64,000 bases of DNA from Patescibacteria group bacterium (GCA_023474215.1 JAMCYI010000016.1:8265-72264), one strand, 5' to 3'. Counted from the stretch's first letter, positions 49,214 to 53,380 are shown. Translations and numbers: made by a program. The notes: generated by a model not told the origin, from the letters alone.

Positions 49214-50233
49214 ATGAACGATGCCGTCCTCATAACCCTTGCCGACAAGAACTTCATTCCTCAAGCGAAGCAGCTCTTTTCGTCGGCATATTGGAACGGA
49301 GGGTGGCAGGGGGATTTCCTGCTCTTGGCGCATGAGATCCCGGAGGAGGACCTCCGGTGGTTCCGGGAGAAAGGGATCATTGTTTTCCCCTGCAAGCCGC
49401 TTTCGGAGCGGGAGCTCATCGGCGTACGTCACCCTCCCGTCGTCCTCGACAAGTTCTACCTCTTTACGCCTTTCTTCAAGCAGTGGAAACGCATCGTCTT
49501 CCTCGATGCCGATATCATCATCGAAGCATCACTCGACCGTCTCGTTGAAACAAAGGGATTTTGCGCGCCGAATGCCACGTGCGTCGGCCTCACAAAAGAG
49601 TTCTTCCGGACGGATCGAAAACTGCGCGCCGAACTCGAACGAACGTATCCCCTTCGGGGGAAGGCCTTCAATACGGGGGTGTTCGCCTTCGATGCCGCGG
49701 ACATTGCCGGCGATACCTTCGAAAAAATGACGGCACTGTACAAAAAATTCGGATCGCTCAATTTTTACGGGGAAGAAGGAACGTTCAACCTTTTCTTTTA
49801 TAAAAAGTGGACAATGCTCCCCGTTATGTACAATGCTTACCCAACCTACATGAGGGACACCTACAACCTCGACCATGGCCGCCTCGAAAGCGTCATCATT
49901 CATTTCGTCGGAGAAACGAACGCAAAACCGTGGCTCGAAACTTCCCTTTGGCACGGAGAGTGGGTAGAAAATTTGCGGAAAGCCGACGGCATCGATCTTC
50001 TACACCCCCGAAAAGCCGCCAAAATCTGGACGCAAAAAGAAGAACGGGATTATATCCGCGCCCTTCCCGCAAAACGCTTGCATCATCTCATGCGGCGGAA
50101 AATTTCGACACCCATCGCCCGCGCGTCGCGCAAACTATGGGATCGCATCGAACATATGATCGGCCAAATCGGGCTTTTCATCAAAAAACTCTTTCCTCGT
50201 CTTTATGAACGAATCCGCATCAAGCACGACTAA
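49214..50233 (+). CDS. GT8-family glycosyltransferase, tandem paralog 1
   Basis: MNDAVLITLADKNFIPQAKQLFSSAYWNGGW...FLDADIII (DxD)...FNTGVFAFD (GT8 signature). Confidence 0.75.
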   Translation: MNDAVLITLADKNFIPQAKQLFSSAYWNGGWQGDFLLLAHEIPEEDLRWFREKGIIVFPCKPLSERELIGVRHPPVVLDKFYLFTPFFKQWKRIVFLDADIIIEASLDRLVETKGFCAPNATCVGLTKEFFRTDRKLRAELERTYPLRGKAFNTGVFAFDAADIAGDTFEKMTALYKKFGSLNFYGEEGTFNLFFYKKWTMLPVMYNAYPTYMRDTYNLDHGRLESVIIHFVGETNAKPWLETSLWHGEWVENLRKADGIDLLHPRKAAKIWTQKEERDYIRALPAKRLHHLMRRKISTPIARASRKLWDRIEHMIGQIGLFIKKLFPRLYERIRIKHD

Positions 50234-51287
50234 CGTCCTCATAACCCTTGCCGACAAGAACTTCATTCCTCAAGCGAAGCAGCTCTTTTCGTCGGCATAT
50301 TGGAACGGAGGGTGGCAGGGGGATTTCCTGCTCTTGGCGCATGAAGATGTCCCCGAAGGAGAACTCACATGGTTCGAGGAAAAAGGGATCTTGATCTACC
50401 GATGCAAGGCGCTCACAAACCTTCCCCGGTATGGGAGGGTGCCGGCTGCCGCTCTCGACAAGTTCTATCTCTTCACGCCTTTTTTCAGGCGATGGAGAAA
50501 GATCATCTTCCTCGATGCAGACGTCATGGTAAGAGGATCCTTGGAATATCTTGAACGATGCGAAGGTTTTTCGGCGGCTCCCGACGATTACAGCGGAAGG
50601 CTGTGGCACGAATTCAAACGCCCCCACCTGCCCCTCTGGCGGAATTACAATCTCGGATCATCCGTTTTTAACTCGGGAGTCCTTGTCATCGATACCCGAT
50701 CGGTCATCCGCGAGGAGACATTCGGCGAGCTGAAACAATTGAGCGAACGTTATGCTCCGCAAATACGATACGGCGAGCAGGCGATCTTCAATCTCCATTG
50801 GCTTGGAACATGGAACCGCCTCCCCCGCGCCGAGAACTTCCTCGCAAATTTCGGACCGTTCCAGCTCATGAAGCGGGACGACATTCGAGCGGCTGTCGTG
50901 CATCTTGCCTCCCAATATAAACCATGGGACCCGCGGAGCAGGTTCCACGAAGAGTGGCTTACGAATCTCGAAAAAGCCGATGCCATCGACCTTCGATCCA
51001 TCCCTGATCCGGCAATGACCGTCACCGAGGCGGAAATGCGAAAATTCGACGCCGTCCTGCGACAGCGCAAAATAACCCGCATCTATCAAAGGGCCACGAT
51101 CTTCTTTAAAATACGGGCATTCGTGAAATGGAAGATACTCCGGAAAATAGGCGCGATACTCTGCAAAACGGCGGATGCAACGAAACAAACAAGAGATCGG
51201 CTCGTAGATCGGTCAAAGTACCGGATCGGCCGGTTCATCAAATTCTTCTCCCCCCGCTTGTACCGCAAACTTGGGGGAAAAAACTAA
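50205..51287 (+). CDS. GT8-family glycosyltransferase, tandem paralog 2 (canonical start deleted; initiates from ATG embedded in paralog 1 3' end, or pseudogene)
   Basis: Same conserved N-terminal block starting at VLITLADKNF; DxD FLDADVMV; FNSGVLVID. Confidence 0.55.
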   Translation: MNESASSTTNVLITLADKNFIPQAKQLFSSAYWNGGWQGDFLLLAHEDVPEGELTWFEEKGILIYRCKALTNLPRYGRVPAAALDKFYLFTPFFRRWRKIIFLDADVMVRGSLEYLERCEGFSAAPDDYSGRLWHEFKRPHLPLWRNYNLGSSVFNSGVLVIDTRSVIREETFGELKQLSERYAPQIRYGEQAIFNLHWLGTWNRLPRAENFLANFGPFQLMKRDDIRAAVVHLASQYKPWDPRSRFHEEWLTNLEKADAIDLRSIPDPAMTVTEAEMRKFDAVLRQRKITRIYQRATIFFKIRAFVKWKILRKIGAILCKTADATKQTRDRLVDRSKYRIGRFIKFFSPRLYRKLGGKN

Positions 51288-51291
51288 GCCT

Positions 51292-52383
51292 ATGAACGAT
51301 GCCGTCCTCATAACCCTTGCCGACAAGAACTTCATTCCTCAAGCGAAGCAGCTCTTTTCGTCGGCATATTGGAACGGAGGGTGGCAGGGGGATTTCCTGC
51401 TCTTGGCGCATGAAGATGTCCCCGAAGGAGAACTCACATGGTTCGAGGAAAAAGGGATCTTGATCTACCGATGCAAGAGACTGACGGTAAGAAACCGCAT
51501 CGGCTACCAACATCCTCCCGTCGTCCTCGACAAGTTCTACCTCTTTACGCCTTTCTTCAAACAATGGAAGAACGTCGTCTTTCTTGATGCGGACATGATC
51601 GTCGAAGCATCGATTGAAAATCTTGCCCGCATCAAAGGAAGCTTTGCCGCTGCACCGACCACCGAGATATCGCTCAAAAAAGAATTCCGCCGCGGCATTG
51701 AAGAGAATCTGTTCAATGAATTGCAAAAGCGTTTCCCCCTCGAAGGAGAAGCGTTCAACACGGGGGTCATGGCATTCGACACGACGATCATCAAAAACGA
51801 TACGTTTGACAACATCTTCGCCCTTTACGAACGCTTCCAAGCGCTTAATGCATTCGGCGACGAAGGAACGTTCAATCTCTTCTTTTACAAGAAATGGGAA
51901 CGGCTCTCCAGGCTCTATAATACCTACCCCTTTTATACCCATGATGCGTACGGCCTCCCCTACCGCAAAATCAAGCCCATCGTCTTCCATTGCGGTTGGG
52001 AACCTCTTCCGAAACCGTGGTCAAAGGAGTCATACTTATACCAAGAATGGTCCGACAACCTGCGGAAGGCGGAAATGATGGATATCACAAAACCGCAAAA
52101 GCCGGCGCGAATATGGCTGCCGGAAGAAGAGAAACGGTACGAACGCATACTCCGAGCGAAGCATCCGTGGCGCGTCCCCAAGCGGAAAATGCGGACGGCA
52201 TATGCATCAATACGCTCATTCGCACGTCGGGCGGGACGCTCATCCCTCGATTCCCTCTCTTCGTTCTTCAAAAGATCCCTTTCCCGGTGCCGGGGCGCGA
52301 TCGATCCTCTCGTCGGGAAAACGGGCATCATACTCAAAAAACTCTCCCCCCGCTTGTACCGCAAACTTGGGGGAAAAAACTAA
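51292..52383 (+). CDS. GT8-family glycosyltransferase, tandem paralog 3
   Basis: MNDAVLITLADKNF...FLDADMIV...FNTGVMAFD; ORF track starts at upstream TTG 51271. Confidence 0.75.
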   Translation: MNDAVLITLADKNFIPQAKQLFSSAYWNGGWQGDFLLLAHEDVPEGELTWFEEKGILIYRCKRLTVRNRIGYQHPPVVLDKFYLFTPFFKQWKNVVFLDADMIVEASIENLARIKGSFAAAPTTEISLKKEFRRGIEENLFNELQKRFPLEGEAFNTGVMAFDTTIIKNDTFDNIFALYERFQALNAFGDEGTFNLFFYKKWERLSRLYNTYPFYTHDAYGLPYRKIKPIVFHCGWEPLPKPWSKESYLYQEWSDNLRKAEMMDITKPQKPARIWLPEEEKRYERILRAKHPWRVPKRKMRTAYASIRSFARRAGRSSLDSLSSFFKRSLSRCRGAIDPLVGKTGIILKKLSPRLYRKLGGKN

Positions 52384-52387
52384 GCCT

Positions 52388-53380
52388 ATGAACGATGCCG
52401 TCCTCATAACCCTTGCCGACAAGAACTTCATTCCTCAAGCGAAGCAGCTCTTTTCGTCGGCATATTGGAACGGAGGGTGGCAGGGGGATTTCCTGCTCTT
52501 GGCGCATGAGATCCCGGAGGAGGACCTCCGGTGGTTCCGGGAGAAAGGGATCATTGTTTTCCCCTGCAAGCCGCTTTCGGAGAAAGAACTTGCCGGCCTT
52601 TGGCATCCATCGATCGTCCTCGACAAGTTCTACCTCTTTACGCCTTTCTTCAAGCAGTGGAAACGCATCGTCTTCCTCGATGCCGATATCATCGTCCGGG
52701 CATCGATCGAGAAGCTCACGGACGGCAAGGAACTTTTTTCTTCGCCGAACGCCCACGGCACTTCTCTCCGAAAAGAATTTATAAAGAAGACCAAAAAGAA
52801 CCGCGAGCTCTTCGGACGGCTGGAAAAGGAATACCCGCTCCAAGGGAAAGCATTCAACAGCGGCATTATGTCGTTTTCCGCGGATGTTATCCAAGAAGAT
52901 TCTTTCAAGAAACTTATGGAGCTCTACCAGCGCTTTGGGGAACTCAACAAATACGGAGAGGAAGCGACCATCAATCTCTTGTTCTATCGGAACTGGCATA
53001 TGCTTTCGCCGCTCTACAATACGTACCCGTGGCGCACGCATCATCTGTACGACCTTTCCTATAACAAAATCCAAGCCATCATCCTCCACTTCGTCCGCGA
53101 AACAACAGCAAAGCCTTGGCTTGAAACTTCGCCGTTCCACAAGGAATGGCTCGCGAACTTCGAGCGAGCCGATGCGATCGATCTCTTAAAACCGCAAAAC
53201 GCTGCAAGAATGTGGACATCAGATGAAGAGAAACGGTATCTCCGATCCCTCGCCGTGCGGAGATCCCTGACGTTCTACCGATGGGCGCTCTTTGCCGCCG
53301 ACTGGGCAATCGGCAGGATCGGGCTTTTGATAAAAAAATTGTCGCCCGCGCTCTATGAAAAAGTCCGCATTAAAAATTAG
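52388..53380 (+). CDS. GT8-family glycosyltransferase, tandem paralog 4
   Basis: MNDAVLITLADKNF...FLDADIIV...FNSGIMSF. Confidence 0.75.
   Translation: MNDAVLITLADKNFIPQAKQLFSSAYWNGGWQGDFLLLAHEIPEEDLRWFREKGIIVFPCKPLSEKELAGLWHPSIVLDKFYLFTPFFKQWKRIVFLDADIIVRASIEKLTDGKELFSSPNAHGTSLRKEFIKKTKKNRELFGRLEKEYPLQGKAFNSGIMSFSADVIQEDSFKKLMELYQRFGELNKYGEEATINLLFYRNWHMLSPLYNTYPWRTHHLYDLSYNKIQAIILHFVRETTAKPWLETSPFHKEWLANFERADAIDLLKPQNAARMWTSDEEKRYLRSLAVRRSLTFYRWALFAADWAIGRIGLLIKKLSPALYEKVRIKN

Follow-up and report, generated by a model that had tools for sequence, protein, structure and literature searches.

In duplicated tuf genes and ribosomal RNA (rRNA) operons, paralogs within a genome are more alike than orthologs between genomes, their synonymous sites are homogenized, and this state is found in several lineages; prokaryotic cases of concerted evolution that have lasted for long have been surveyed by Wang & Chen (2018; PMC6053082). 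Here we analysed a tandem array of four genes of glycosyltransferase family 8 (GT8) in a 64 000-nt stretch of DNA (the window) from an uncultured Patescibacteria group bacterium (GCA_023474215.1, JAMCYI010000016.1:8265-72264), which resembles those duplicated genes in all of these properties. The array differs from them in that only a 5′ segment of 110–300 bp and the gene junctions evolve in concert, while the rest of the genes is 46–60 % identical with clear orthology, and in that its members are probably functionally distinct glycosyltransferases and not dosage duplicates. In the lgt locus of Neisseria, recombination between paralogs forms hybrid genes. This lipooligosaccharide locus (lgtA/lgtD and lgtB/lgtE; PMC2192810) is the closest functional parallel to the array, as in both cases tandem glycosyltransferase paralogs lie in what is, or appears to be, a surface-glycan operon, gene number differs between strains, and shared sequence blocks permit deletion and hybrid formation. 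In contrast to the array, the Neisseria genes belong to other glycosyltransferase families (with the exception of lgtC, a GT8 gene) and undergo phase variation by poly-G tracts, which the array does not contain, and change in the copy number of the array is only putatively biological.

The original prediction, made from the sequence of the window, had described a four-gene tandem GT8 array with a mosaic pattern and overlapping start codons, and this observation was confirmed. The four genes (c1 to c4 in array order) are intact, co-directional and arranged head to tail, and are followed by a fusion gene (GT2); the distances from each stop codon to the next start along c1-c2-c3-c4-GT2 were −29, +4, +4 and −26 nt, and the NCBI proteins MCL5114900-903 matched c1–c4 exactly. 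We compared the window locus (W) with the syntenic loci L006 (WY2.bin70), L003 (GCA_964565515.1), L004 (GCA_009712145.1), L005 (GCA_021791395.1) and L009 (Candidatus Paceibacter), using a core of 510 nt and a head of 111 nt from each gene; all array sequences compared were short-read metagenome assemblies. The features of the array are as follows.

49183-49213, + strand: probable promoter, with a short leader, ahead of c1; about 17 nt separate the end of the box TATATAAT from the ATG
49214-50233, + strand: GT8 copy 1 (c1), 339 aa; Pfam PF01501, E = 3.5e-22; first gene of the operon
50205-51287, + strand: GT8 copy 2 (c2), 360 aa; Pfam PF01501; N-terminus MNESASSTTN, not MNDA
51292-52383, + strand: GT8 copy 3 (c3), 363 aa; Pfam PF01501
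52388-53380, + strand: GT8 copy 4 (c4), 330 aa; Pfam PF01501; its tail LYEKVRIKN holds the ATG of the next gene
53355-54812, + strand: GT2 and IRX15/GXM-type methyltransferase fusion (GT2), 485 aa; Pfam PF00535 and PF21729; last gene of the operon
49225-49335, 50234-50344, 51303-51413 and 52399-52509, + strand: head block of 111 bp that the four copies share without a mismatch (exact matches)
51247-51413 and 52343-52509, + strand: 167-bp junction repeat (exact match), consisting of the LYRKLGGKN tail, stop codon, 4-nt spacer and head
50205-50233, + strand: c1/c2 overlap, 29 nt read in two frames, kept in L006 and L003
53355-53380, + strand: c4/GT2 overlap, 26 nt read in two frames, near-invariant DNA in L006, L003, L004 and L005

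The head encodes β1, α1 and β2 of the nucleotide-binding subdomain (VLITLADKNF...LLLAHE). An identical block of about 125 bp in all four copies had been predicted; the shared block is real, but its length is 111 bp, and the 122 bp counted from the ATG are common to c1, c3 and c4 only. As also predicted, a second block pairs c1 with c4 and c2 with c3, both as exact tracts: c1 and c4 were identical over 195 bp (49214-49408 and 52388-52582), and c2 and c3 over 175 bp that include the head and the second block (50234-50408 and 51303-51477). A further tract of 80 bp is common to c1 and c4 (49440-49519 and 52614-52693), and one of 47 bp to c1 and c3 (49433-49479 and 51514-51560), while the 167-bp repeat makes the c2/c3 junction identical to the c3/c4 junction. 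The C-terminal tails had been thought to pair differently from the second block, but they follow the same pairing, with c1 resembling c4 (LYE[RK][IV]RIK) and c2 equal to c3 (LYRKLGGKN); the mosaic shows in the identity at the c3/c4 junction, in the 47-bp tract and in the comparison across genomes. Over their cores, the copies of the window were 46–60 % identical, with an amino-acid identity of 44–62 %. In a Sawyer-type permutation test, the longest concordant runs comprised 52–117 polymorphic sites, as compared with a maximum of 15–28 in 10 000 permutations (p ≤ 1e-4 for 6/6 copy pairs).

Comparison of the cores across genomes gave a different picture of relatedness from that of the heads. Every core of the window was far nearer to one gene elsewhere (80–83 %, in L003 or L004) than to its own neighbours (46–60 %), with identities of 80 % for c1 and L3_a, 83 % for c2 and L4_0, 82 % for c3 and L4_a, and 83 % for c4 and L4_b, and of about 95 % for the orthologs in L006, which identifies c1–c4 as old paralogs with traceable orthologs. 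The ratio of nonsynonymous to synonymous divergence (dN/dS) was 0.12–0.19 for c1 (orthologs L6_c1 and L3_a, with about 79 % amino-acid identity in L003), 0.14–0.23 for c2 and 0.10 for c3 (ortholog L4_a), and orthologs of c4 were found in four loci (L6_c4, L3_c, L4_b and L5_c). Across all four copies the ratio was 0.10–0.23, and all four are under purifying selection. A metagenome scan with c3 brought up L021, the same contig as L004, and no close relatives beyond those already compared. These data bear on the explanation that the copies are young and that the 5′ blocks have simply not yet diverged since a recent tandem duplication, as the tandem arrangement and the identical junction repeats might indicate. 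The synonymous sites of the paralog cores are saturated, with p-distances of 0.69–0.75, each copy has its own ortholog in genomes at a synonymous divergence of 0.7–1.1, and the gene order c2-c3-c4 is common to the window and L004. Recent duplication is thus refuted by the saturated core sites and the copy-specific orthologs, and we regard it as extremely improbable.

The heads, in contrast, were 98–100 % identical within each of W, L006, L003 and L004, and 90–95 % identical for pairs in L005 and L009, whereas between genomes their identity was 85–94 %, orthologs differing by 6–15 %. The synonymous p-distance in the head was 0–0.04 among the paralogs of the window and 0.25–0.50 between orthologs, while in the bodies it was 0.49–0.58 between orthologs and saturated among the paralogs. 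In the nucleotide alignment, all heads of one genome carried the same genome-specific synonymous variants, and exact head tracts of 112–287 bp recurred in L003, L004, L005, L006 and L009; such tracts were absent from the Bacteroidales arrays of the same GT8 subfamily. Identical heads could also be kept by selection on a nucleic-acid element in the first 111 bp that, for example, folds as RNA, serves as an antisense target or binds a protein, and the head is indeed the most conserved protein segment of the family, with a tract that begins at or near the start codon. However, the synonymous divergence of the head between orthologs is near that of the bodies, and the identity of the heads is therefore not due to constraint at the level of bases; moreover, the ends of the tracts vary between genomes and copy pairs (111 to 287 bp). 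An RNA element in the head was also rejected as a candidate, since the heads gave no Rfam match and their synonymous sites diverge normally between genomes, which makes selection of this kind very unlikely.

The genome-specific synonymous variants in the heads, the orthologous cores, the permutation test and the alignment at the DNA level agree with the earlier suggestion of repeated gene conversion, and strongly support segment-restricted concerted evolution by conversion of the 5′ heads. By this mechanism, homologous recombination within the array would repeatedly copy short tracts of 110–300 bp between copies, non-adjacent as well as adjacent, and the converted tracts would be located at the 5′ ends and would also span the tail/head junctions. 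The first β-α-β unit would thereby be kept identical within a genome while the cores continue to diverge. The same repeats would serve both unequal crossing-over and collapse by the assembler, either of which alters the apparent copy number, and the 167-bp junction repeat could be the substrate on which c3 was deleted, or skipped by an assembler. The process itself is ordinary interlocus gene conversion and involves only known processes, not a new kind of system.

Comparison with the other genomes pointed to the direction of transfer. In the window, c1 begins with MNDA, as do c3 and c4, while L6_c1, L5_a and L9_b begin with MKEH, and the variable sites over the first 195 bp of c1 fit a transfer from c4 to c1, which lie 3.2 kb apart. 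Similarly, c3 of the window has the c2-type sequence GILIYRCK, while L4_a and L043, an independent contig assembled at k = 141 from a strain about 5 % diverged, retain GIAVFKCK. Conversion thus appears to be still going on, as c4-type sequence has overwritten c1, and c2-type sequence c3, since the lineage of the window separated from strains about 5 % diverged. As a whole, we consider it probable that the array consists of ancient GT8 paralogs in a glycan operon, subject to segmental conversion, with inherited overlaps and likely coupled starts.

Several observations on the assemblies weigh against this explanation. The short-read assemblies of the array disagree on copy number: L006 (7001-10071) has three copies and is without exactly the 1096-bp c3 unit, and L044 (GCA_027423705.1, 3907-4917) joins the start of c2 to the body of c4 in a two-copy array, both being either real products of unequal crossing-over or the result of assembler collapse through the shared heads. 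In addition, L002 (GCA_023380715.1) stops at window position 51417, directly beyond the c3 head, a gap of 100 N is present at a head in both L003 and L044, and the phasing of heads and bodies over repeats of 111–195 bp, and hence the exact ends of the tracts, could be partly choices of the assembler. The Joint Genome Institute contig L001 is not independent support, because it is 100 % identical to the window. These disagreements raise the alternative that the identical heads and the mosaic arose from collapse or path choice in a de Bruijn graph, the true genome having fewer copies or heads that are less alike; copy number does differ among assemblies from identical or closely related populations, which break, or have N gaps, exactly at the heads, and in L044 and L006 the c1 and c4 bodies carry each other's head variant (HEV versus HEI).

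Nevertheless, the joins between the second head block and the body lie within 64–84 bp of unique sequence, less than a read, and a k-mer graph cannot invent them; the pairings of c1 with c4 and of c2 with c3 are therefore no assembler inventions. The independent contig L043 carries c2, c3 and the c4 head, and its internal repeat is just 116 bp, shorter than its k of 141; it fixes the order c2-c3-c4, so that by elimination c1 comes first and its tail leads into c2. Furthermore, heads differ by 6–15 % between genomes and by 0–2 % within each of five genomes, and bubble-popping would not merge paths so divergent and of equal coverage, while all four bodies have orthologs elsewhere. The tracts are thus seen in L043 and in five separately assembled genomes, even though assemblies break or collapse at the heads, and we consider an artefact quite unlikely as the source of the pattern and retain gene conversion as its explanation.

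The same differences in copy number could be read biologically, as the signature of a contingency or diversity-generating locus in which homogenized heads are maintained for deletion, re-expansion and the formation of GT8 hybrids that vary a surface glycan. Contigs of closely related populations show four, three and two copies and one hybrid (c2 start, c4 body), the neighbouring GT4 pair and a triplet of pilin genes (described below) also carry conversion tracts, and in the paralogous glycosyltransferase locus lgt of Neisseria one strain has far fewer genes (PMC2192810). Assembler collapse through the same repeats, however, accounts equally well for the differences in copy number, and the four orthologs have all been retained under purifying selection across genomes. 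The array also has no simple-sequence repeats: between positions 49101 and 54900 the only run of at least seven was a single A7 at 53332, with no 2–6-nt unit repeated four or more times, so this feature of phase-variable loci of the simple-sequence-repeat type is missing. A contingency locus is therefore unlikely in our judgement. The more specific version, that the heads and junction repeats form a maintained recombination cassette with which populations of episymbiont type delete, re-expand and hybridize GT8 modules at high frequency, has a similarly small chance of being right; if true, such a cassette would let the surface glycan vary reversibly with no need of invertases or simple-sequence repeats, and the GT4 and pilin tracts would reflect the same strategy. 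We therefore continue with gene conversion among ancient paralogs.

The second part of this explanation concerns the two overlapping junctions. The start of c2 is the ATG of cttTATGAAcga, which lies in the +1 frame within the Tyr-Glu codons of the LYE motif of c1. This ATG, at 50205, is the only c2 start codon upstream of β-strand 1, and in the same frame the next candidate, a TTG, comes only at codon 44, so that its use would remove the first β-α-β unit, in agreement with the prediction that c2 can start only inside the last codons of c1. The same arrangement had been noted between c4 and the fusion gene and was found there, with the start of the latter at ctcTATGAAaaa inside c4 and an overlap that reads ctcTATGAAaaagtccgcat... 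at the DNA level; this overlap is near-invariant, as a sequence that serves two reading frames should be. The overlapping start of c2 (MNESAS[SG]TTN) recurs in L006 and L003, the two other genomes with a readable junction, and in L009 a third GT8 gene likewise starts inside LYERIRIKK. At the a/b and b/c junctions of L005 the downstream start lies elsewhere, in cATGaataa, and the Tyr codon there is TAC.

Since the junctions recur in other genomes, they are old and working and no recent scars. Consequently, the view that c2 has lost its own ATGAACGATGC was not upheld, the overlapping start being already present in the c2 orthologs of L006 and L003 as an old type of junction, and the idea that the overlaps are a fossil record of the splicing-in of new members found no support where a recent event is meant. 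Nor is c2 a pseudogene, a possibility that the original prediction had raised against itself, as its frame is intact, its orthologs are conserved and its dN/dS is low. The tails of c1 and c4 are homologous and both downstream ATGs sit in the TAT-GAA of the tail motif, so that the embedded ATG was probably passed on together with the tail. Between c1 and c2, the conversion tract ends at the stop codon of c1, because homology ends there. We also considered a programmed +1 frameshift from c1 into c2 at CUU-UAU-G and rejected it, as the site has neither a stimulatory stop nor a rare codon, and re-pairing would not be possible at its c4/GT2 counterpart, CUC-UAU. The cATGaataa of L005 led to the speculative idea that the ACG at codon 8 of c2 is a mutated ancestral ATG, against which the ATG embedded in LYE in L009 weighs.

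To place these starts in the context of translation in this organism, we considered its ribosome. The 16S rRNA gene of the window (10810-12277, minus strand) has the 3′ end GGATCAATTAAAC, without a CCTCC anti-Shine-Dalgarno sequence, and a Shine-Dalgarno-like motif was found upstream of just 6/49 long open reading frames. Many first cistrons have a TATAAT that ends 7–12 nt before the ATG and no Shine-Dalgarno-like motif (for example those at 6204, 7994, 9305, 9967, 22312, 35455, 43262 and 49110), and this spacing suggests that first cistrons are mostly carried by leaderless mRNAs. Upstream of c1, a scan with the sigma-70 consensus called no promoter; it missed the TATATAAT box because no −35 element is present. 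Genome comparison revealed the box, as W, L006, L003 and L005 all have the conserved motif TA(A/C)TATATAATA ahead of their first GT8 gene. The 23S rRNA gene (1-980, minus strand) starts about 10 kb from the 16S gene, with tRNA-Thr, tRNA-Trp, pilin and other genes between them, and the rRNA genes are therefore unlinked.

Given a 16S rRNA without an anti-Shine-Dalgarno sequence, internal cistrons must start without Shine-Dalgarno pairing; a GGGGGA in the tail of c2 and c3 was rejected as a Shine-Dalgarno sequence for this reason and because it lies 14 nt from the ATG. Downstream cistrons would most likely be coupled to upstream translation, by reinitiation or by ribosome-dependent unmasking, and translational coupling or Shine-Dalgarno-independent initiation is plausible for the array. 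Overlapping co-directional genes are known to be coupled by termination-reinitiation or by initiation that depends on upstream translation (PMC6728339, PMC10666635), and the array resembles such genes in being co-directional, in its distances of −29, +4, +4 and −26 nt, in having no Shine-Dalgarno sequence available and in its conserved overlaps. It differs from them in that an overlap of 1 or 4 nt is found in most coupled pairs, while two of its junctions overlap by 26–29 nt, an inefficient distance for reinitiation in model organisms.

Coupling is thus the natural candidate particularly for the +4-nt junctions (c2/c3 and c3/c4), and the case for it would be weaker at the longer overlaps. In E. 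coli and Haloferax, reinitiation loses 40–80 % at +14 nt and is near abolished at +38 nt (PMC10666635), and termination-reinitiation may fail to couple a start that lies 26–29 nt upstream of the stop, both of which tell against coupled starts throughout the array. The c1/c2 (−29) and c4/GT2 (−26) junctions lie beyond the efficient range of that study and within the 34 nt of phage fr, the coat/lysis pair of which works with a 34-nt overlap according to Adhin & van Duin (1990), as cited in PMC10666635. A literature search for loss of the anti-Shine-Dalgarno sequence in Patescibacteria found nothing.

Assignment of the four copies to GT8 was supported by sequence and by structure prediction. All of them scored 57.6–79.6 bits against PF01501, for which the curated cut-off is 24.3, and an AlphaFold model of c1, built from an alignment of 110 sequences, had a GT-A fold with a predicted local distance difference test score (pLDDT) of 94.9. 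Its best Foldseek matches were glycogenin-1, WbbM, GlyE, LgtC and 3tzt (E = 1e-11 to 4e-14, probability 1.00). The N-terminal secondary structure of c1 comprises a strand (residues 4–10), a helix (12–27) and a second strand (34–40), and the DxD motif after strand β4 is LDAD (residues 97–100), with D100 invariant and D98 conserved in at least 90 % of the 110 homologs. The long C-terminal helix ends in P.LY.K[LI][KR], a motif common to the whole family. The four copies are accordingly GT8 family members by these comparisons, while retaining transfer from a nucleotide sugar is only predicted, and each copy would add a different sugar or use a different acceptor.

Among solved enzymes, the array proteins share the retaining GT-A fold of GT8 with pneumococcal GlyE (5gvv), the GT8 domain of WbbM (6u4b), glycogenin and LgtC (1ss9), and the Gram-positive glycosylation loci in which GT8 paralogs such as GlyE act in sequence, and the O-antigen synthesis by WbbM that depends on an ATP-binding cassette (ABC) transporter, are similar in having multiple GT8 genes per glycan locus and an adjoining ABC exporter. 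They differ from the solved enzymes in a sequence identity of just 15–21 %, and in the conserved N-terminus peculiar to their subfamily, LADKNF.PQAKQLFSSAYWNGGW, along with the long C-terminal helix; a literature search for this subfamily found nothing. The same GT8 subfamily (LADKNY..QAKQLFSSAYWN... with the P.LY.K tail) forms tandem arrays of 4–6 genes in the Bacteroidales metagenome-assembled genomes (MAGs) L012, L013 and L017, and also occurs in DPANN archaea (Pacearchaeota L010 and L011). Some junctions there have starts that overlap by 11 nt, and identical head tracts were not found.

According to Pfam, the surrounding locus encodes GT2 and GT4 proteins, two GT4 paralogs on the opposite strand and a Wzm/Wzt-like ABC exporter, and looks like an ABC-transporter-dependent surface-glycan locus. 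The IRX15/GXM-type domain of the GT2 fusion belongs to the family of the plant glucuronoxylan 4-O-methyltransferases, and the gene adjoins the Wzm/Wzt-like exporter; judged by its domains, the fusion might act as a chain-terminating methyltransferase. In L005, the GT2 and IRX15/GXM-type domains are two separate genes. The tandem GT4 paralogs (47162-48145 and 48133-49119, minus strand) share an exact tract of 534 bp (47344-47877 and 48318-48851) and are otherwise diverged, which adds a further instance of partial gene conversion to this locus; in L006, L003 and L005, the place of one of the pair is taken by a gene of about 690 aa.

Other repeats were observed elsewhere in the window. Three tandem type-IV-pilin-like genes (8078-9967, minus strand) encode an N-terminal methylation motif, and each has a TATAAT near its ATG; one pair shares a tract of 181 nt with 97 % identity (8493-8673 and 9103-9283). 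In addition, two pairs of inverted repeats were found, one of 130 nt with 95 % complementarity (15019-15148 and 17588-17717) that flanks 2.4 kb, and one of 94 nt with 90 % complementarity (30010-30103 and 38584-38677) that flanks 8.5 kb.

Nothing in the array overturns current understanding. Arrays of this type are systematically mis-assembled, with four, three or two copies in related populations, which calls for caution with counts of glycosyltransferases and with 'hybrid' genes in MAGs of the candidate phyla radiation. Because of the heads, trees inferred from complete GT8 genes of these genomes will be misleading. The conserved overlaps of 26–29 nt, together with a ribosome without an anti-Shine-Dalgarno sequence, make the array a natural test case for the initiation of internal cistrons in bacteria of this kind. 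What is noteworthy is that homogenization is limited to one structural module, β1-α1-β2, and persists over several Patescibacteria lineages, so that the array provides a clean multi-genome case of concerted evolution in a single module of enzymes that diverged long ago, from a lineage for which short-read MAGs are nearly the sole source of knowledge.

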